A DNA stretch of 32,000 nucleotides from Burkholderiaceae bacterium (GTDB lineage: Bacteria; Pseudomonadota; Gammaproteobacteria; Burkholderiales; Burkholderiaceae_C). This document shows, one piece after another, positions 14,111 through 23,840 of this stretch (position 1 is the stretch's first letter; each line of letters begins with the position of its first letter). The notes below the pieces were generated by a model that saw only the letters and a program-made list of their open reading frames with translations, did not search any database and was not told the DNA's origin. The translations under genes were made by a program, and so were the position numbers. The stretch covers positions 83,946 through 115,945 of the forward strand of contig JBASFL010000091.1 in the NCBI GenBank assembly GCA_049653005.1, written 5' to 3'.

Positions 14111-14162
14111 ATGGTCGGCGTGGCGGGATTCGAACTCGCTACCCCTTGCACCCCATGCAAGT
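14111..14162 (-). repeat. Left att repeat: displaced 3' fragment (about 51 nt) of tRNA-Pro
   Basis: ATGGTCGGCGTGGCGGGATTCGAACTCGCTACCCCTTGCACCCCATGCAAGT is identical at 51/52 positions to 23763-23814 (T at 14140 versus G at 23792). Similarity stops exactly where the 5' part of the tRNA would continue. Confidence 0.9.
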
Positions 14163-14293: not shown

Positions 14294-14323
14294 AGCGGTG
14301 TGGGTAACGGTGTGGGGAAAAAC
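14294..14323. repeat. 30-bp arm-type repeat, copy 1 (contains tandem CGGTGTGGG half-sites); ends 11 nt before the integrase ATG
   Basis: AGCGGTGTGGGTAACGGTGTGGGGAAAAAC is identical (30/30) to 23671-23700, in the same orientation. Confidence 0.8.
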
Positions 14324-14334
14324 TGGAGAGTGGA

Positions 14335-15726
14335 ATGGCACTGATCACGGAACTGGAATTGAAGGCACTCAAAGCGAGTGACCATGGACGCCGCTTGACC
14401 ATGGGCCGCTCGCTTTATGGCGGGGTGAGTGTGGGCTCCAATGGCACCGTGAGCGTGCATGTTTCGTGGCGGTACAAAGTTGGCGGCAAGGTGCGGGAAA
14501 AGCCAATCGGCACCTGGAAGGCAAAGGACGGCATGAGCCTGAAAGCCATATTCGCGGAACGTGAGCGGCTGGCGGTGGCTCTGCGCGACGGCACCGACCC
14601 CGTGGCCCAACGTGAAGCCGAGCGCGAGGCAAAAGCAAAGCAAACAGAGATTGACCGCATCAAAGCCGAGGCTGACCACCAACAGGCCTTGTTGGAGCAG
14701 CAGCAGCGGCTGGAAGTGATCGCGGCACAGCAAGCGCGCCAGACAGTGCGTAACCTGTTTGCCTTGTGGCACCGCCTGGAGCTTGCAAGGCGCGACGATG
14801 GGGGCGCAGAAACCCTGCGCTCTTTCACTGCCGACGTGTTTCCACTGCTAGGTGACATGGCCGCCGAGGATGTGAAGAAGGCCCACATTCGGCAAGTGCT
14901 GGACAGCATCCAAGCCCGCGCCACCCCGGGCAAACCCATGGTGCGCACCCAAAAGAAAACACTGTCAGACCTGCGGCAGATGTTCGCCTTTGCCCTTGAC
15001 CGCGACCTGCTGGAAGCCGACCCCACCGCCAGCGTGAAGAAAAAGGCGTTGGGCAAGGACGTGGAGCGAGAACGGCATTTCAGCGAAGCGGAGCTGATCG
15101 AGTTTTTCCAAAAGCTACCCGCGTCGGGTTTGGCTGAAACCTCACAGCTTGCGTTGCTGATTCAGCTTTCCACGGTGGCCCGCATTGGCGAAGTGCTGGG
15201 CGCGCGCTGGGCTGATGTTGACCTGGAGCGCAGAACATGGCGACTGCCCGACACCAAGAACGGCAAAGACCACACCGTGACCCTGAGCGACTACGCTGCC
15301 CGCCAGTTCGAGCAATTGCACCAAGCCACCGGCCTGACCCCTTGGTGTTTCCCGGCCAGCCGAATAGACGGGCCTGTGTGTGAAAAGACCGTCACCAAAC
15401 AGGTGGCAGACCGCCAGCGCCCTGACGCCAGCCCAATGAGCGGGCGCACCAAGCAAACCACGGCGCTGGTGATCGGTGAAAAGTGGACACCCCACGACCT
15501 GCGGCGCACTGGGGCCACCCACATGGCAAAGCTGGGGGTATTGGATGGCGTGATCGAAAAGTGCCTGAACCACACCGATGAGAACAAGGTGCGGCGCATC
15601 TACAACCGCGAGCAGTACGCACAGCCCATGCGCGATGCGTGGCACCTGCTGGGTGAACGGCTGGCGCTGTTTCAGGCACAAGCCGAGGGCAAGGCCACCA
15701 ACGTGGTGACGCTGCGGGCGGCGTGA
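14335..15726 (+). CDS. Tyrosine integrase, P4-type (N-terminal DUF4102 arm-binding domain plus phage-integrase catalytic domain)
   Basis: 463 aa. The N-terminus is LKALKASDHGRRLTMGRSLYGGVSVGSNGTVSVHVSWRYKVGGKVREKPIGTW (DUF4102 pattern). Catalytic residues are recognisable in ARIGEVLGARWADVDL (Arg), TPHDLRRTGATHM (His-x-x-Arg), CLNH (His) and RRIYNREQY (Tyr). Confidence 0.92.
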   Translation: MALITELELKALKASDHGRRLTMGRSLYGGVSVGSNGTVSVHVSWRYKVGGKVREKPIGTWKAKDGMSLKAIFAERERLAVALRDGTDPVAQREAEREAKAKQTEIDRIKAEADHQQALLEQQQRLEVIAAQQARQTVRNLFALWHRLELARRDDGGAETLRSFTADVFPLLGDMAAEDVKKAHIRQVLDSIQARATPGKPMVRTQKKTLSDLRQMFAFALDRDLLEADPTASVKKKALGKDVERERHFSEAELIEFFQKLPASGLAETSQLALLIQLSTVARIGEVLGARWADVDLERRTWRLPDTKNGKDHTVTLSDYAARQFEQLHQATGLTPWCFPASRIDGPVCEKTVTKQVADRQRPDASPMSGRTKQTTALVIGEKWTPHDLRRTGATHMAKLGVLDGVIEKCLNHTDENKVRRIYNREQYAQPMRDAWHLLGERLALFQAQAEGKATNVVTLRAA

Positions 15727-16255
15727 ACCGATGACGCAACACCGAGACAGACCGTGAAGCTATTGCCGATTTGCCGGGGCGCATTGCGCTGTTTGAGGGG
15801 CTAAGGTGGCCTGACGTACCGTCCACCGTTCAAGACGAGCGCGGCGTGAAAATCCGTCTCAACACTTCAATGAACGCCCCCCAACACACACCACTGCGCG
15901 CACTGGAACAAACCACCAAAGGCTGATGCGGTTTGACCGCCAAAACCTCCACAAAACCGCGCCACAATGCACGCAGCGAAGTCCAGAGGTGTGCCAATGG
16001 ACGAAGCTGAAAAGGCGAGAGCCACCAGACCAGCCCAGCAAGGCTGAAAAGGTAGCTCTCAGGTTTGCACCAGTTACCCAGTGCGTTGCAGTTTGGACGA
16101 CTTGCGACACAAATTAAACCACGACACGATAGGGTGGCCTATCTGTCTTTATGTCCAGCAGTGGCTAAAGGCGTGCAAAAGCGCCTTTAACTCATACGCT
16201 GGCTGTGGCGGGTTCCTGGTGCGTTTGATTGACGACACCACAAAGGAAAAGCCAC

Positions 16256-16465
16256 ATGGCCACACCCTCCCCCACCCTCCCCACCGTCGGGGAATTTCTC
16301 GACAAGCTGCCCACCGTCCTGGCACGTACAGGGTACAGCCGCAGTCGTTGGTACCAAGGCATTCAAACGGGTGAATTCCCCAAGCCCGTCAAGCTGGGTG
16401 CTCGCGCTGTGGCCTGGAAGCGTAGCGAGATCGACCGCCTGATCGAATCCCTGCAAACCGCCTGA
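16256..16465 (+). CDS. AlpA-family helix-turn-helix regulator / excisionase-like protein
   Basis: FLDKLPTVLARTGYSRSRWYQGIQTGEFPKPVKLGARAVAWKRSEIDRLIESL matches the AlpA/Xis (MerR-like wHTH) consensus (..G.SRST.Y....G.FP.PVKLG.RAV.W...E...W). The ATG at 16256 is preceded by AAAGGAAAA. The ORF-track start is at 16229. Confidence 0.85.
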   Translation: MATPSPTLPTVGEFLDKLPTVLARTGYSRSRWYQGIQTGEFPKPVKLGARAVAWKRSEIDRLIESLQTA

Positions 16466-16743: not shown

Positions 16744-17072
16744 TGGCCCCCCAAAAACAAACCCCCACCAGCGGGCAAACACTGGCAGGGGCAACAGGCT
16801 TTCAACAGTCAAAACCTATTCTATCGCCCGCCTGCAAAGCGCGAACAGCTACGGTTTTCGCCAACGACATGGACACACCAACCGGCCAGCGTGCCGACAA
16901 GGCATTCACCACCCTGGCGGCGCAGCTTGCACTGCAAGGCCACACCCTGACCCGCAGCAACCCCAACGACGGCCCGGTGCGGTACTACGCCAGCCGCTGG
17001 GGCATGGTGCGCCAACTGCCCGACTTGGACGCTGTGGGCGCATTCGCCCGCATGGTGGGAGGTGCCCAATGA
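16743..17072 (+). CDS. Hypothetical protein (109 aa)
   Basis: It is translationally coupled on both sides (TGATG at 16741-16745, ATGA at 17069-17072). No recognisable motif was found. Confidence 0.5.
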   Translation: MAPQKQTPTSGQTLAGATGFQQSKPILSPACKARTATVFANDMDTPTGQRADKAFTTLAAQLALQGHTLTRSNPNDGPVRYYASRWGMVRQLPDLDAVGAFARMVGGAQ

Positions 17073-17530
17073 GCTTCAACCGCGACGCACTGCCAGAACC
17101 CGTGGGCTACTTTGAAGGTGTGGGCCTGACCCTGCGAGGCCCTGGCAAGTGGAAAACCACCCGCTGCGAGTTCCACGGAGGCAGCGATTCAATGCGCGTG
17201 AACACGACAAGCGGGGCATGGGTGTGCATGGCCTGTGGGGCAAAGGGCGGCGACGTGCTGAGCTACGAAATGCAACTGACCGGCGCGGAGTTCGTGGAGG
17301 CGGCAAAGGCCCTGGGAGCGTGGATTGACGATGGCCGCGAACCCGCCAGCACCAAGCCCACCAGCTTGCCACCCAGAGCCGCATTGGGGGCCCTGGCGTT
17401 TGAGGCAACGCTCATTGCTGTTGCCGCTGGAAACGTGGCGCAAGGGCTGGCGCTGGATGCCGCCGACCTGAGCCGCGTCATGGTGGCCGCTGGCCGAATC
17501 CAAGGCATCGCCGGGGAGTACGCCGCATGA
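17069..17530 (+). CDS. CHC2-type zinc-finger protein (DnaG-primase N-terminal zinc-binding domain only)
   Basis: KTTRCEFHGGSDSMRVNTTSGAWVCMACGAKGGDVLSY follows the CxH...CxxC pattern with G.GGD..S, as in the primase zf-CHC2 domain. No TOPRIM or AEP catalytic domain follows within this 153-aa protein. Confidence 0.75.
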   Translation: MSFNRDALPEPVGYFEGVGLTLRGPGKWKTTRCEFHGGSDSMRVNTTSGAWVCMACGAKGGDVLSYEMQLTGAEFVEAAKALGAWIDDGREPASTKPTSLPPRAALGALAFEATLIAVAAGNVAQGLALDAADLSRVMVAAGRIQGIAGEYAA

Positions 17531-19215
17531 TGGACATGACCGAATACCGCGAGCGCATGGCCGCGTTTGATGCCGAGCTGGGCATCGTGGCCCCACCAGC
17601 CGAGACGCGCTCCAAACTGGTTACCAAGCGGGTTTCCACGAACAACGGCCAAAAGTTGCCAGCCGGTTGCCTGCCACCCACTTTCCCCGCCTTGGAGGAT
17701 GACGGCGCGGACGATGACAGCACATGGCCCACTCCGCTACCGCTGCCCGATGGCCTGCCTCCCGTGCAAACCTTCGACCCCGAGCTGTTGCCGCTGGCGT
17801 TGCAAGGCTGGGTGGCGGACATTGCCCACCGGATGCAATGCCCGCCTGACTTTGTGGCCGTGGCCGCTGTCGCCGCCCTGTCTGGCTTGATTGGGGCGCG
17901 TGCTGTCATTGCCCCAAAGCAGTACGACGACTGGCGCGTGGTGCCCAACCTGTGGGGCCTGATCGTGGGCAAACCCGGCGTGATGAAGTCGCCCGCACTG
18001 GGGCAGGCACTGGCCCCCCTTCACCGGCTGGAAGCCAACGAACGCGAGGCGGTGGGCGTGGCGCGTGAAAGCTGGGCGCTCGACCTCAAGGTGGCGGAAA
18101 TGGCCGCCGAGGCGAACGAGAAGCGGGCCAAGGCATTGGCAGCGAAAGACCCTGCCGGTGCGCGTGCATTGCTGGAGTCGGCAGCCGTCCACACACCAGA
18201 GCCCACCGTACGACGGTATGTGGTCAACGACGCCACTGTGGAGAAGCTGGCCGAGCTGCTGACCGTCAACCCATGGGGCTTGCTGGTGTTCCGCGACGAG
18301 CTCCACGGCCTGTTGTCGAGCATGGACAGAGCGGGGCAAGAGGGGTCACGCGGTTTCTACCTGACGGGCTACGACGGCAACCAGGGCCACGCGGTTGACC
18401 GCATCGGGCGCGGTGAATCCTATGTGCCGCGTGTGTGCCTGGCCATGCTGGGTGGGATGCAACCCGGCAAGCTGCAAGCCTATGTCCGTGAGGCCGTGAC
18501 CGGAGGGGCGGGCGACGACGGGCTGCTGCAACGCTTTGGGCTGGCTGTCTGGCCCGACGTGAGAGCGGAATTCCAAAAGGTTGACCAGTGGCCGGACACG
18601 CACGCCAAACAGACCGCATGGGCCGTGTTCGAGCGGCTGGAGACCTTGACCCCAGGCAGTGACGACGAACCCGTGGAGTGGCGCTTCACACCAGAGGCAC
18701 AGGTGTTGTTTTGGGAGTGGGCGCTCCCCTTTGAGACAGAGATTCGCGGCGACGAGCTGCACCCCGCCCTGATCTCCCACCTGAGCAAGTACCGCAAGCT
18801 GGTGCCCGCACTGGCCTTGATCTTTGCACTGGTGGACACCCCCGACAGCGGCGGCGCTGTGGGCGTGCCTGAGCTGATTCGTGCGCTGGCATGGGCCGAA
18901 TACCTACGCACCCATGCCGAGCGCATTTACAGCGCGGCCACGACACCGGAAACCACGGGGGCAGCCACCCTGCTGAAGAAGATTCAAGCGGGCAAGCTGG
19001 CCGATGCAGACGGCGTGCTGCTGGATGCCTTCGCCCCCCGTGATGTGGCCGTGAAGCACTGGGCGGGCTTGTCCACGCCAGATGCAGTGCGCAAAGCGGG
19101 TGATGTGCTGGTGGATTTTGGCTGGCTGGTGAAAAAGATGCGCCCATCGACCAGCGGGCGGGCAAGCGAGCTGTTTCTGGTCAACCCTGCTGCAATGAAA
19201 GGGGTGCCCCAATGA
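17527..19215 (+). CDS. DUF3987 (YfjI-like) domain protein, putative replicative helicase/initiator of the island
   Basis: 562 aa. The layout matches my recollection of DUF3987 proteins that follow primase domains in P4-like/PICI elements. It has a P-loop-like GLIVGKPGVMKSPAL and later LVFRDELHGLL and YLTGYDGN..HAVDRI...VCLAMLGGMQP. There is an ATGA overlap with the upstream gene. Confidence 0.7.
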   Translation: MMDMTEYRERMAAFDAELGIVAPPAETRSKLVTKRVSTNNGQKLPAGCLPPTFPALEDDGADDDSTWPTPLPLPDGLPPVQTFDPELLPLALQGWVADIAHRMQCPPDFVAVAAVAALSGLIGARAVIAPKQYDDWRVVPNLWGLIVGKPGVMKSPALGQALAPLHRLEANEREAVGVARESWALDLKVAEMAAEANEKRAKALAAKDPAGARALLESAAVHTPEPTVRRYVVNDATVEKLAELLTVNPWGLLVFRDELHGLLSSMDRAGQEGSRGFYLTGYDGNQGHAVDRIGRGESYVPRVCLAMLGGMQPGKLQAYVREAVTGGAGDDGLLQRFGLAVWPDVRAEFQKVDQWPDTHAKQTAWAVFERLETLTPGSDDEPVEWRFTPEAQVLFWEWALPFETEIRGDELHPALISHLSKYRKLVPALALIFALVDTPDSGGAVGVPELIRALAWAEYLRTHAERIYSAATTPETTGAATLLKKIQAGKLADADGVLLDAFAPRDVAVKHWAGLSTPDAVRKAGDVLVDFGWLVKKMRPSTSGRASELFLVNPAAMKGVPQ

Positions 19216-19961
19216 GCTACCTCGAACGTCTGAAAAATCTCAAGAGCGCCGGAAGCCACGCTACGAACGCTACAAAAACCCCATTCGTAGCGTTTGTAGC
19301 CCCCCTGCTGGCCCCTTTTGAAAATTCAAAGAGGGACTTGAGGGGGCTTGATGCCCTGGCAGCGAACGATGACGGCCCCCAACTGTCGCAACTGTCGCGG
19401 CCCCAAACATCGGCCAGCAACGACCCGCCACCAGCGCCAGCGCCGGTAGAGCCTCCCGACTGGGCGGCGCTGGACAAGGCGTACATGGCCCACCACCTGA
19501 GCTGCCCCGCCTGCATTGCGGCTGGCAAGGGCTACGGCCTGCGGTGTGGCGCTGGGCGTGCGCTTTGGGGCAGCTACGACGCGGTGGACATGCCGCCACC
19601 CGTGCGGGCGCAACCAGCATCAGCCGCACCCAAGCCGGTGGCGACCGGCAGCCCACCAGTGGCAGAGCCCACCGAACAGGAGGCCGAGCGAACATCCAAG
19701 CGGCTGGCGCTGTTTGCCGCCCGTGGCGTGAAAGGTGACGAAGCGCAAGCCCTGGCCCAACGTCTGCTGATGCGCGACCGTGAGGGCGACCGCCGGGGGG
19801 TGTGCGCTGAATGCCGCCAACTGGGGGGAACCGGGCCGGGGCGCTGGAGATGCGGCGATAACGCCCACCCCAACATCAACGAGCTGGCCGGGGCATGGGT
19901 GGGCGCTGCATTCGTTCACGTTCGCCTGCACCGCTGCAACAGTCTGGAGAAAGCGACATGA
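19212..19961 (+). CDS. Hypothetical Cys-rich protein (249 aa)
   Basis: It is coupled by ATGA overlaps at both ends. It has two Cys clusters, HHLSCPACIAAGKGYGLRCGAG and GVCAECRQLGGTGPGRWRCGDNAH, suggesting zinc binding. The N-terminus is TKTPFVAFVAPLL, followed by a Pro/Ala-rich linker. Confidence 0.55.
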   Translation: MSYLERLKNLKSAGSHATNATKTPFVAFVAPLLAPFENSKRDLRGLDALAANDDGPQLSQLSRPQTSASNDPPPAPAPVEPPDWAALDKAYMAHHLSCPACIAAGKGYGLRCGAGRALWGSYDAVDMPPPVRAQPASAAPKPVATGSPPVAEPTEQEAERTSKRLALFAARGVKGDEAQALAQRLLMRDREGDRRGVCAECRQLGGTGPGRWRCGDNAHPNINELAGAWVGAAFVHVRLHRCNSLEKAT

Positions 19962-20620
19962 CCACCAGAAAAGCCAAGACCCCCGCCACCAAGGCCCGAA
20001 ACCCAGATGCCTTTCGCCTGACTGCCGCAACACCGGAGGAGCAAACCCGCAAAGGGGCGGAGCTGTCCACCAGTGGCGGCGTGAATGCCATGCTGGTGCG
20101 GGCGTACCTGCCCATCGATGGCATTGGAGCGGCAGACATTCACGAAGCCATGGCGAGGCAATCTGAGGGCCTGCAATCCGATGGCGACCGCATCCACCAA
20201 GCCGAGGCCATGCTGTTGAACCAAGCCGCTGCACTTCAGGCCATGTTCATTGATCTGGCCAGCCGGGCCAAACTCCAAAACAACCGGGAGTGGTTACAGA
20301 CCATGACCGGGCTGGCACTTAGGGCGCAGACCAATTGCACGCAAACGCTGAAGACGTTGGGTGAGCTGCGAAACCCCCGACAAGCCGTGTTTGCCAAACA
20401 GGCCAACATCGCCCACGGCCATCAGCAAGTGAACAACGAACAACAGGTAGCGACCAGTCAAGGGAGCCGCACGGGTGCACATGAATGCCCGGCTGAGCAA
20501 AACCAACTATTGGAGCAAGACCATGGCAAATGGCTGGACACCGGAGCGACGGGTACGACAGGCCGCACAGATTCGCACCTGGAAGCCGTGGGCACAGTCC
20601 ACCGGGCCAACAACACCTGA
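19958..20620 (+). CDS. Hypothetical protein (220 aa), helical
   Basis: The start is the ATG at 19958 (ATGA overlap with the upstream stop), giving MTTRKAKTPATKARNPDAF.... The central block is QAEAMLLNQAAALQAMFIDLASRA...GLALRAQTNCTQTLKTLGELRNPRQAVFAKQANIAHGHQQVNN. I recall this pattern from unannotated island and plasmid proteins, but that is unverified. Confidence 0.55.
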   Translation: MTTRKAKTPATKARNPDAFRLTAATPEEQTRKGAELSTSGGVNAMLVRAYLPIDGIGAADIHEAMARQSEGLQSDGDRIHQAEAMLLNQAAALQAMFIDLASRAKLQNNREWLQTMTGLALRAQTNCTQTLKTLGELRNPRQAVFAKQANIAHGHQQVNNEQQVATSQGSRTGAHECPAEQNQLLEQDHGKWLDTGATGTTGRTDSHLEAVGTVHRANNT

Positions 20621-20747
20621 AGGCAAGGCCACCACCAAGCGCAACGCCTTCAAGGGTGGATTCAGGCCACAGCTGCGGGCATTGGCGAAGCGCACGAACG
20701 AGCTGATTCGGGAGATGAAAGCCGTGGGTGACTGGCCGCCAGCCTGA
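20523..20747 (+). CDS. Small basic hypothetical protein (74 aa) overlapping the preceding gene out of frame
   Basis: MANGWTPERRVRQAAQIRTWKPWAQSTGPTTPEGKATTKRNAFKGGFRPQLRALAKRTNELIREM. GGAG lies 8 nt upstream of the ATG at 20523. The W.PE.R.RQA..I..WKPW..STGP.TPEGKA...NA.KGG pattern looks like a conserved small-protein family from memory, but that is unverified. Confidence 0.5.
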   Translation: MANGWTPERRVRQAAQIRTWKPWAQSTGPTTPEGKATTKRNAFKGGFRPQLRALAKRTNELIREMKAVGDWPPA

Positions 20748-22118: not shown

Positions 22119-22574
22119 CCCACACACAGGCCATGCGCAGTCACCCCGCAAGTGCGTGCAGGTGCCACCCGCATGCAGCAGGTGCACGAACCGTGAACGA
22201 CCGTTGACGCTTCGTTGACGAACCCAGAGAGAAGCCACCGGCAACCCAGCCGGAACCCATGGGTTTTCAACCACCTGGCATTCCCAGCTTGACGCGCCCC
22301 CCGCCGCCCGTGGCAGAATCGCGCCAAGCCGAAAGGCCCGGTGCTATCCACACCACAAACAAGCGGTCGCAGCCCCCACCGAGAAGCGGGGTTTTGTCAC
22401 GCCCAAAATTTACGGGGCTGGTATGCCTTGCGCTGCCTGCCCTGAAGGTTATGGGGCTGGGAGCGCATACCCGCGAGGATTGCGGCACAACTTGTTTTGT
22501 GTGGATATACCCAGCTCCACCCGATGCTCTATCCAAGCAGCGAGTGGTTTTCAAGTTCAACAAGGAACTGAACC

Positions 22575-22853
22575 ATGACAGCCGTCACCCTGGCCAGCCG
22601 CCGCGCTGCGCCCATTTCCCCGCAAAAGCGGGTATTCACCCCCACCACCAACCCCACCACCCAGGCCAACGAGCTGCACCTGATTCAGTTGCACGCCCAA
22701 GCCTGCACCAGCCTGCGCGAGGCCCTGCGCCAGTTGCAGGCCCCCACCGCCACTGATGGCACCAACACATGGGCCAAGGCCACCGCGCGCGCCACCCGCG
22801 GCCTGAGTGCCTTGAAGCAGGCGTGCGCACTGTCCAACCGTGTGGAAGGCTGA
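22575..22853 (+). CDS. Hypothetical protein (92 aa), first gene of the terminal cassette
   Basis: The ATG is preceded by CAAGGAACTGAACC. The product is helical (ELHLIQLHAQACTSLREALRQLQ). The next gene starts 3 nt after its stop. Confidence 0.5.
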   Translation: MTAVTLASRRAAPISPQKRVFTPTTNPTTQANELHLIQLHAQACTSLREALRQLQAPTATDGTNTWAKATARATRGLSALKQACALSNRVEG

Positions 22854-22856
22854 GCC

Positions 22857-23174
22857 ATGACACCCATTCCCAGCAACGACCCAATCCTGCCCGTGGTGCA
22901 CTTCACCGAGACGGTGCGCGGCGCTGTGGCCCGTGTGCGCAACGTCGCCCGAGCCGTGGGGCCAGAGCACGCCGATGACCTGTTGATTGCGGAGGCCATG
23001 CTTCACCGACTGGACGGCGTGAGAAACGAGGTGGCCCTGTTTTCAGCCGCTTTGCGTGGGCAACTGTCCAGGGGCGAGATTGGACGGGCCGAAGCCACCG
23101 CAAACGAACTGAGGGATTACCTCGGGCACTGGGACACCCCACACATGCTGACGGTTCGGAGGGCTCAGGCATGA
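22857..23174 (+). CDS. Hypothetical protein (105 aa), second gene of the terminal cassette
   Basis: The ATG is preceded by GGAAGGCTGAGCC. There is an ATGA overlap with the S24 gene (23171-23174). No HTH or other motif is recognisable. Confidence 0.5.
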   Translation: MTPIPSNDPILPVVHFTETVRGAVARVRNVARAVGPEHADDLLIAEAMLHRLDGVRNEVALFSAALRGQLSRGEIGRAEATANELRDYLGHWDTPHMLTVRRAQA

Positions 23175-23536
23175 CCAACGCGCAAGCCAGCACCAGCGGC
23201 ACGACATACGCCCTGATGGTCGAGGGTGACAGCATGGTCAGCACCGCCGGCACACACAGCTTCCCACCCGGTACCGTGCTCATCGTTGACCCGGAGCGGG
23301 CACCCAACGCGGGCGACTTCGTGATTGCCAACGACGTGGTGACGCAGCAGGCGATGTTCAAGCAGTTGACCACCGACGGCTCGCGCTGGTACCTCAGGTC
23401 ACTGAACCCAGCCTATGCGCCCATCGAGATTGACGACCCTGCGCAGCGCGTAATTGGCCGGGTGATTGAGGCACGGCCACCAAGCGTGAACCTTGAGTTC
23501 GACCGTGAACCAACACACACGGTTGCCATGCGATGA
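23171..23536 (+). CDS. Stand-alone S24 peptidase domain protein (LexA / lambda-CI C-terminal-domain-like), no DNA-binding domain
   Basis: 121 aa. YALMVEGDSMVSTAGTHSFPPGTVLIVDPERAPNAGDFVIANDVVTQQAMFKQLTTDGSRWYLRSLNPAYAPIEIDDPAQRVIGRVIEA aligns by eye with the lambda CI C-terminal domain ([88 protein letters not shown]). The Ser (GDSM) and Lys (FKQL) dyad residues are present. Only about 12 residues precede the domain. Confidence 0.8.
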   Translation: MTNAQASTSGTTYALMVEGDSMVSTAGTHSFPPGTVLIVDPERAPNAGDFVIANDVVTQQAMFKQLTTDGSRWYLRSLNPAYAPIEIDDPAQRVIGRVIEARPPSVNLEFDREPTHTVAMR

Positions 23537-23610
23537 CTGACGCGGTTCATTGCCGCTGACCAAGCCACCAGCGCCGCCTGAAAAGTAAGGAGACGGTCAC
23601 CCCCACCAGA

Positions 23611-23638
23611 CCCGGCCACTGTGCCGGGTTTTTGTTTG
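23611..23638 (+). terminator. Rho-independent terminator of the terminal cassette
   Basis: CCCGGC(23611-16)/GCCGGG(23623-28) stem with a 6-nt loop, followed by TTTTTGTTTG. Confidence 0.7.
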
Positions 23639-23670
23639 TGGGTGGGGCTGATCACGGCCAAGCAAACAGC

Positions 23671-23700
23671 AGCGGTGTGGGTAACGGTGTGGGGAAAAAC
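23671..23700. repeat. 30-bp arm-type repeat, copy 2
   Basis: Identical to 14294-14323. It lies 62 nt inside the right att repeat. Confidence 0.8.
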
Positions 23701-23762: not shown

Positions 23763-23814
23763 ATGGTCGGCGTGGCGGGATTCGAACTCGCGACCCCTTG
23801 CACCCCATGCAAGT
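23763..23814 (-). repeat. Right att repeat, embedded in the 3' part of the intact tRNA-Pro gene
   Basis: 51/52 identical to 14111-14162. Confidence 0.9.
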
Positions 23815-23840
23815 GCGCTACCAGGCTGCGCTACACGCCG
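23764..23840 (-). tRNA. tRNA-Pro (anticodon GGG), 77 nt including encoded CCA
   Basis: Folded by hand from the reverse complement: CGGCGTG TA GCGC AGCCTGGTA GCGC A CTTGC ATGGGGT GCAAG GGGTC GCGAG TTCGAAT CCCGC CACGCCG ACCA. The acceptor, D and anticodon stems are perfect. The anticodon loop AU-GGG-GU gives GGG. The T-stem has one A:C mismatch. Confidence 0.9.

Follow-up and report, generated by a model that had tools for sequence, protein, structure and literature searches.

A headless λ CI-type S24 core in the cargo operon of a satellite-like island: a candidate mimic of helper-phage repressors

We analysed a 32-kb stretch of DNA from a Burkholderiaceae bacterium (contig JBASFL010000091.1, positions 83,946 to 115,945 of the forward strand; hereafter the window, whose own numbering is used throughout), in which a run of three small plus-strand genes ends in a gene for a 121-residue protein (23171–23536). 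Pfam, PHROG and PDB matches identify this protein as a headless S24 core of the λ CI type. It is preceded by ORF92 (22575–22853, 92 residues), the first gene of the small-gene operon, and by ORF105 (22857–23174, 105 residues), whose stop codon overlaps the S24 start in an ATGA at 23171–23174. An earlier note, made from the sequence alone, had given these coordinates and this overlap exactly as we find them, and its claim of a shared terminator also stands, as an intrinsic-terminator-like hairpin (23608–23631, plus strand) follows the S24 gene and closes the operon. The GC content at third codon positions (0.84 for ORF92, 0.74 for ORF105 and 0.77 for the S24 gene) is as expected of real genes at 60–65% GC.

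A free-standing core of a λ CI-type repressor

The 121-residue protein is a member of the PF00717 (Peptidase_S24) family (E=1.5e-18, 67 bits against a cut-off of 23.3), with residues 7–99 aligned to positions 30–116 of the 116-position profile. Profile positions 1–29, which include the cleavage-site strand, are unmatched, and therefore the Pfam start of self-cleaving S24 proteins is absent from this protein. The Ser-Lys dyad is present as Ser21 in a GDSM context and Lys64 in an FKQL context, aligned with the corresponding motifs of λ CI, and both residues are invariant across nine natural variants. We found no Pfam match to a helix-turn-helix (HTH) in the protein, where merely 6–8 residues precede the domain match, and in the same sequence neither an Ala-Gly or Cys-Gly scissile bond nor the VPxISxVxAG motif of the full-length relatives. 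Position 23171 is the first start codon following an in-frame stop, and the in-frame translation 5' of it reads as unrelated sequence with a stop codon and no trace of an HTH or a cleavage motif. A Shine-Dalgarno (SD) sequence, GGAGGG, lies 8 nt 5' of the start and is kept in a sister island (L001, described below) despite a different upstream gene. Two artefactual origins, a frameshifted full-length gene and an ORF105–S24 fusion, were considered and rejected, as the upstream frame is unrelated and has no slippery site; in L001, a different gene precedes the S24 gene across a 3-nt spacer. The earlier note had described an S24 catalytic and oligomerisation domain alone, with its dyad intact and without HTH, linker or self-cleavage site, and this description is borne out. 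Its likening of the protein to the post-cleavage fragment is not, since alignment of full-length relatives from the Ala-Gly to the start of the core shows the protein to be ~25 residues shorter than the C-terminal fragment of CI that RecA generates. The alignments indicate that it is the catalytic and oligomerisation core alone, corresponding to λ CI 132–236, without the cleavage strand.

The database matches place this core close to λ CI. Among PHROG families the best match is phrog_8558 (E=6e-25), an unannotated 114-position profile to which residues 7–103 align at positions 15–109, followed by the transcriptional repressors of phrog_4 (E=2.6e-23) and, more weakly, by UmuD-like and CI-like families, including phrog_811 (E=1.7e-8). 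The phrog_8558 match means that short S24-only proteins already exist as a phage protein family. The best PDB sequence matches are the λ CI C-terminal domain (CTD) entries 1KCA and 1F39 (E~1e-13), with query residues 9–104 aligned to chain residues 2–96 of 1F39. These entries hold eight (1KCA) and two (1F39) chains of the λ CI fragment 132–236, which we take to be an octamer and a dimer, respectively; the fragment folds autonomously, dimerises and mediates cooperativity. LexA chains are matched weakly in the same search (E about 1e-3), and no UmuD chain is among the matches listed at E<=0.01. With NCBIfam models, the protein scores 36.4 bits against the UmuD model PRK10276 (E=4.5e-9), below the cut-off of 110, and 24 bits against LexA. 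Judged by these similarities, the protein derives from λ-CI-type repressors and not from UmuD or LexA, and with such an ancestry the idea of a helper-repressor decoy, raised in the earlier note, is a reasonable one.

The relatives of the core point in the same direction. A HMMER scan over 1.84 billion cluster representatives returned 2370 relatives of the 121-residue protein, and the best 150 of these, which we inspected, are nearly all HTH–S24 repressors of 213–275 residues that match at their C-terminus. The best of these (P0015, 224 residues) is 70% identical over the core in the scan and 69% identical over 100 aligned residues by BLASTP. Most of the few short entries are artefacts. P0003, at 72% identity, begins at a contig edge; together with P0004 and P0005 (124–136 residues) it was considered as a 'pre-cleaved' form and rejected, as at the corresponding locus (L004) the reading frame runs on to the contig edge and includes VPLISSIQAGE upstream. 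Because this open frame carries the QAG cleavage motif, the three proteins are truncated calls of full-length repressors. Two other full-length relatives occupy classical immunity positions in lambdoid prophages, one (P0006) oriented divergently from a gene of cro size, near NinG, terminase and a P22-type portal, and the other (P0007) in a prophage with ERF, SSB, YqaJ and integrase. Additionally, a tblastn search against 50,697 phage records matched 504 of them, and nearly every annotated match among 30 listed is a cI, c2 or LexA-family repressor. Because its relatives are full-length, sit at prophage immunity positions and are annotated as cI or c2, the window S24 gene must descend from the immunity repressor of a lambdoid prophage. 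A few other short S24 proteins were seen alongside these. By sequence, P0148 (Lys to Arg), P0159 (Ser to Thr) and P0067 (dyad intact) are candidate independent headless forms, and an IMG/VR look-up of the context of P0067 and P0148 gave nothing useful; the 154-residue P0163, in which the N-terminus of an IS3-type transposase OrfA is fused to an S24 core, is probably a repressor truncated by an insertion sequence.

The headless form also occurs outside the window. The 90%-identity cluster of the 121-residue protein comprises eight proteins, which come from NCBI, JGI, ENA and Logan samples, and a second headless cluster (P0002) is 87% identical to the protein. Overall, there are at least nine headless variants, 87–98% identical and from different metagenomes; a JGI metagenome scan for more headless copies gave just the already-known loci. 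All nine aligned variants that cover these positions keep the start, Ser21, Lys64 and a 13-residue C-terminal extension (NLEFDREPxHTVAMR), which is absent from full-length relatives, as these end ...GKL. Two residues before the catalytic Lys, λ CI has Thr, as do 11 of 14 aligned relatives, and all headless copies have Met or Val there; Val is also seen in one full-length relative. By the Nei-Gojobori method, the ratio of nonsynonymous to synonymous substitution rates (dN/dS) of the S24 gene is 0.32, 0.37 and 0.26 in the three DNA pairs available, and the gene is under purifying selection. Because there are at least nine variants, with dN/dS of 0.26–0.37 and with the SD sequence and C-terminal extension kept, the headless form is a maintained one and not a fresh deletion. 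The earlier note would have given up its reading had the homologues been uniformly full-length, with this copy explained by a 5' deletion. Outside one tight clade the homologues are indeed nearly all full-length, but the deletion account fails for the headless clade, which is maintained.

Comparison with better-known S24 proteins brings out what is distinctive about the core. The λ CI CTD (132–236) has the same domain boundaries to within a few residues, the same dyad and the same CI-type similarity; it is, however, a laboratory construct or a cleavage product, whereas the 121-residue protein is encoded by a separate gene with its own SD sequence and start and has a 13-residue tail. Likewise, the λ CI CTD belongs to a phage, whereas the core is carried by a satellite-like island. 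Over the whole core, the full-length CI/C2 repressors (phrog_4; P0015, P0006 and P0007) are 58–70% identical to the protein, but they carry an HTH, a linker and VPxISxVxAG and end ...GKL, and the 121-residue protein is without these N-terminal elements and adds its C-terminal extension. UmuD' and phage P1 HumD, the latter a natural UmuD' homologue that is encoded already truncated, resemble the protein as S24 domains without a DNA-binding domain. Unlike them, the protein falls below the UmuD threshold, is of CI type, has no accompanying umuC and lacks an N-terminal arm; with this arm absent it is, as the earlier note had said, shorter than UmuD'. The note was also right that umuC is not nearby, as we found no umuC or other Y-family polymerase gene among the open reading frames (ORFs) of at least 400 residues in the 32-kb window. 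Full-text literature searches brought up no description of a free-standing CI CTD gene in a satellite.

The cargo operon, its leader and the island

ORF92 belongs to a family of 38 homologues with the N-terminus MTxVTLASRRAAP and the motif ELHLIQLHAQAC. Its AlphaFold2 model is a helical hairpin of two long helices with a disordered N-terminus (mean predicted local distance difference test score (pLDDT) of 60). ORF105 is a rare small helical protein, with only two homologues found (94% and 80% identity), a dN/dS of 0.27–0.34 and an AlphaFold2 model that is a three-helix bundle (pLDDT 72). Foldseek searches of both models against PDB and BFVD gave no match below E=0.3. Furthermore, PADLOC-DB gave no match at E<=0.01 for the three cassette proteins or for four neighbours, and an anti-phage defence system was rejected on this ground.

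The earlier note had treated the three genes as a cassette inherited as a unit, a claim that does not hold across related elements. ORF92, ORF105 and S24 are found together only in the window and in L007; the L007 triad consists of the tail of ORF92 with ORF105 and, after it, S24. An ORF105 homologue in L037 lies between unrelated genes for 120- and 99-residue proteins, with no S24 gene, and in L001–L003 the S24 gene follows a gene for a 107-residue protein that has no more than its first ~15 residues in common with ORF92. In five other elements (L008, L009, L031, L032 and L036), several of which also encode AlpA and a primase, ORF92 heads a tightly packed, element-specific run of small genes in which neither S24 nor ORF105 follows it. 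Because ORF92, ORF105 and S24 assort independently, the S24 core is one interchangeable cargo in a variable slot and not a third subunit. Conservation of the upstream ORFs with the S24 gene, the absence of which the note had named as telling against it, is thus not seen, so that half of what would have refuted the note's reading is borne out.

The junctions between the small genes repeat GGRGGCTGAGCCATGAC, in the window at 22840–22860 and 23150–23175 and also in L001, L007, L008, L009, L031 and L036. The junction motif is near-identical, GG(A/G)GGCTGAGCC-ATGAC, and comprises the SD sequence, the upstream stop codon and then the start; most genes of these operons start with Met-Thr. The recurrence of this sequence suggests that small-gene cargo is shuffled by recombination at the junctions, and the junction motif could be a recombination hotspot that explains the shuffling.

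Upstream of ORF92 lies a conserved, structured non-coding element of ~185 nt (22328–22512, plus strand), either a leader or a small RNA, that was delineated with nhmmer and RNAalifold covariation. It is found directly 5' of an ORF92-family gene at every homologous locus examined (nhmmer E 1e-50 to 1e-83), with copies at ~9395–9680 in L001, ~650–940 in L009, ~205–445 in L008 and L031, ~740–1028 in L036 and ~4865–5152 in L032. RNAalifold and pair counts on seven distinct sequences give 59 predicted pairs in eight helices, 23 of which pairs show compensatory double changes. The fraction of cells paired is 95.4%, compared with 33–46% when the partners are slid by 1–3 columns, and 0 of 500 shuffles matched the observed values on any measure; support for a conserved leader structure is strong. 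The fold comprises a GNRA hairpin (22328–22337), a long-range stem of ~25 pairs (22340–22371 with 22485–22512) and a terminator-like hairpin (22372–22392) followed by a U-run (22392–22395). A −10-like hexamer (CAGAAT, CATAAT or TACATT) is seen ~8 nt before the conserved 5' end. The ORFs called across the leader (22259–22756 in the window, and 120-residue calls in L034 and L035) are probably spurious. When 4227 Rfam covariance models were run across the window, only tRNA scored above the gathering threshold, and between 21800 and 23800 nothing was found at E<=1. Because the operon sits behind a structured leader with a terminator-like hairpin, its expression is probably conditional, and we infer that read-through of the terminator in the leader gates expression of the cargo.

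The operon lies within an island bounded by att repeats, and the S24 gene sits at the tRNA-Pro-proximal end of it, in agreement with the att-proximal cargo position in a satellite-like element that the earlier note had assigned. The right att repeat (23763–23814) is the 3' half of tRNA-Pro(GGG) (23764–23840, minus strand; ARAGORN, and Rfam tRNA with 58 bits), and the left att repeat (14111–14162), a 52-nt copy of this 3' half in direct orientation with 98% identity between the two, marks the distal boundary. The repeats are 9.65 kb apart at tRNA-Pro and delimit an island of ~9.6 kb. Just inside both ends lie the two copies of a perfect 30-nt direct repeat, AGCGGTGTGGGTAACGGTGTGGGGAAAAAC (repeat family D4; 14294–14323 and 23671–23700, plus strand), which contains GGTGTGGG twice. 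Once the island is excised as a circle, one copy would lie on either side of the att core, and the two are candidate integrase arm-type sites.

The other recognisable genes of the island are all on the plus strand. A tyrosine integrase (14335–15726; Pfam Phage_integrase E=2e-23, with Phage_int_M and Arm-DNA-bind_3; phrog_1 E=2e-51) is followed by an AlpA-family small regulator (16229–16465; Pfam Phage_AlpA E=2.8e-14); a paper on a P. aeruginosa AlpA antiterminator offers nothing to link that protein to the Pfam AlpA family and was not used. A replication module (17069–19215), with PHROG matches to primase and helicase families, consists of a CHC2 zinc-finger primase-like protein (17069–17530; Pfam Zn_ribbon_DnaG E=1.7e-7) and a DUF3987 helicase-like protein (17527–19215; Pfam DUF3987 E=1.2e-88). 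Several unknown proteins are encoded between this module and the gene run that contains S24, and no structural or lysis family was matched in the scanned island ORFs, several of which are unknowns. The island thus has the hallmarks of a phage-inducible chromosomal island (PICI), with an integrase, AlpA, and CHC2 and DUF3987 proteins in an att-flanked unit of ~10 kb, and by gene content it resembles a satellite of PICI type. On the left it is flanked by housekeeping genes (NUDIX, FAA hydrolase, GST, a laccase-type Cu-oxidase_4, PhaC, thiolase, short-chain dehydrogenase and Dus), and the right flank encodes MerR, an IHF/HU-family protein and pheT, with pheS and thrS assigned to its remaining ORFs from synteny with L001 alone. 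A second island or prophage in the window was rejected in view of these flanks, and no CI-type repressor is encoded in the 32-kb window.

The sister island L001 occupies the same chromosomal site with a different primase (Toprim/AAA_25) and HigBA, and carries the same 121-residue gene, 3' untranslated region (UTR) and terminator as the window island. The 3' UTR and terminator of the two islands (window 23537–23640, L001 10367–10470) are almost 100% identical; the S24 coding regions are about 90% identical, below the 3' UTR, and the upstream genes are unrelated. The 3' UTR may hold attP-arm sites, IHF sites or a 3'-derived RNA. Two further proteins are common to both islands, one of about 221–225 residues (window 19955–20620, L001 8576–9253) and one of 69–90 residues with the motif IRTWKPW..STGP.T.EGK (window 20475–20747, L001 9132–9341), whose gene overlaps or adjoins that of the first. 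Neither has a Pfam or PHROG match, and both are conserved satellite genes.

Among the other elements, L009 (5706–7988), L031 (7905–9014) and L036 (3581–5845) encode an S49 prohead-protease-like protein and/or an HK97/Mu-gpT-like capsid protein. These genes lie beside AlpA and a primase, and the window island is without them. Because of the S49 protease and capsid gene, the elements that share ORF92 and the leader are of satellite type, and in gene content L009, L031 and L036 resemble capsid-forming PICIs (cf-PICIs).

Possible actions on a helper repressor

The reading that we rank first, and hold tentatively, is that the core is a domain mimic that may poison a related CI of a helper phage; it is ranked first because the part that is retained is exactly the part that makes CI–CI contacts. 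A PICI-like satellite would have captured the free-standing CTD of a lambdoid phage CI as cargo, and the captured core would pair with the CTD of a related full-length CI from a resident or incoming helper. Such pairing would titrate CI out of DNA-binding-competent homodimers and cooperative oligomers (subunit poisoning). With fewer competent CI dimers and with cooperativity lost, derepression or lytic development of the helper would be favoured, and the lytic growth of the helper would serve the spread of the satellite. In this scheme it is the binding partner of the S24 core, the direction of its effect and its regulation that we infer. Direct pairing with host LexA is unlikely because similarity to LexA is weak (E about 1e-3). 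The satellite antirepressor P4 epsilon, which inactivates the C repressor of its helper P2 by binding, reaches the same outcome as is proposed for the core. The analogy is functional only, however, as epsilon is not a repressor-domain mimic and has no sequence or fold relation to the 121-residue protein. What survives of the earlier note's own reading is a CI-type S24 core under selection in a satellite cargo slot, and what falls is the three-gene system.

A fuller version of the proposal is slightly more doubtful. According to it, the satellite took the core of a helper CI and expresses it from a terminator-gated leader as a trans-acting anti-repressor, which poisons the helper repressor, cleaves it or targets it for degradation. 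Irrespective of this, the leader would represent a new class of RNA, marking the cargo-shuffling operon of Burkholderiales PICI/cf-PICI-like elements.

Several points weigh against poisoning of a helper CI. The nearest full-length repressor found is 70–72% identical to the core and may be too divergent for CTD–CTD pairing, and no cross-dimerisation is known to us among the repressors of λ, P22 and 434. The Ser-Lys dyad, which is retained, would be superfluous in a pure binding decoy, although at 87–98% identity among the variants its retention says little. The model depends on regulation that is unproven, because a helper prophage could not stay resident if the core were expressed constitutively. 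The headless lineage is also narrow: no headless copy of this clade was found in GTDB species-representative genomes, which returned only distant alphaproteobacterial S24 proteins with 31–41% identity, and the leader motif had no match when IMG/VR was scanned for it.

It is unlikely that the gene is a recombination relic, that is, a repressor fragment produced by illegitimate or junction recombination and kept as a passenger or for a minor, unrelated function. Such an origin would fit the narrow lineage, outside of which homologues are essentially all full-length, the mosaic operon with its shared GGRGGCTGAGCCATGAC junctions and neighbours swapped between elements, and a 3' UTR that is better conserved than the coding region. 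It is opposed by the dN/dS of 0.26–0.37 in three pairs, by nine variants with intact frame, start, dyad and C-terminal extension, and by an SD sequence that is kept in two different upstream contexts; nor is there any trace of a deleted 5' part.

A trans-acting protease, in which the empty active site of the core would take up the cleavage strand of a full-length helper CI, in solution or as part of a heterodimer, cut it without RecA and so bring about SOS-independent induction, has a rather low probability. In its favour, Ser21 and Lys64 with their GDSM and FKQL contexts are invariant in the nine variants, and the core keeps all positions that are invariant in its full-length relatives. Kim and Little reportedly observed intermolecular cleavage by C-terminal fragments of LexA and λ CI, and UmuD is cleaved intermolecularly within its dimer. 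On the other hand, the Thr two before the Lys is replaced by Met or Val in all headless copies, which may indicate a relaxed catalytic constraint, and P0148 and P0159 have no intact dyad, which shows that some free S24 cores, at least, can do without catalysis. In vitro, trans-cleavage is slow at neutral pH. Trans-cleavage is close to the poisoning model and not exclusive of it.

A modulator of the RecA-dependent cleavage of CI or LexA, which would bind either activated RecA filaments or the repressor, alter the cleavage rate and thereby tune or block SOS induction of prophages as a stabiliser or agent of heterologous exclusion, rather than induce them, is less probable again. The PDB matches of the 121-residue protein include 8GMU, a 136-residue λ cI chain that is presumably the C-terminal part of cI in complex with RecA. 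Against this reading, the core has no cleavage-site strand, and it is the docked cleavage strand that RecA* preferentially binds. A precedent for such a modulator exists in phage 434 Hex, an accessory protein that acts on CI-type repressors, as is proposed for the core; Hex excludes P22 and specifically prevents the repressors of 434 and P22 from being cleaved under RecA stimulation (PMC3564112). Hex is, however, encoded by a phage, 3' of cI, and is not described as an S24 protein, and it stabilises lysogeny where destabilisation is predicted for the core, which leaves the analogy a functional one only.

A dedicated three-protein system of ORF92, ORF105 and S24, acting in anti-phage defence or SOS sensing, is very improbable and is already largely refuted by co-occurrence: the triad does recur in L007, with its genes tightly coupled under one terminator, but the genes assort independently, PADLOC gives no matches, and ORF92 and ORF105 are generic small helical proteins without a fold match. 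We give hardly any credence to a pre-processed translesion-synthesis subunit like UmuD' or HumD, for which the weak matches to phrog_811 (E=1.7e-8) and PRK10276 (E=4.5e-9) could be cited, as the latter reaches 36 bits against a cut-off of 110, the best matches are to λ CI, no UmuD' N-terminal arm is present and the 32-kb window contains no umuC-sized or umuC-like gene.

Meaning for satellites and their helpers

What is new here is the occurrence of an S24/CI domain in stand-alone, satellite-borne form. Satellites must sense or trigger the lytic cycle of their helper, and the solutions known to us (P4 epsilon, the Stl/antirepressor pairs of Staphylococcus aureus pathogenicity islands, and AlpA activation in Gram-negative PICIs) use unrelated proteins. 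If poisoning by the core is true, a free copy of the interaction domain of the helper's own repressor would be a simpler route, based on mimicry, and the first example from nature of a helper derepressed through mimicry of a repressor domain. Specificity would then be set by CTD similarity and be readable directly from sequence. The core would also offer a natural test of subunit poisoning by CI C-terminal fragments and of intermolecular cleavage by S24 cores, both so far seen in vitro or with engineered fragments only. If none of these actions holds, the S24 gene is still a clean example of domain-level capture under selection. The structured leader is an independent lead, and together with the junction-mediated shuffling of small genes it defines a cargo slot in Burkholderiales satellites of a so far unstudied group.

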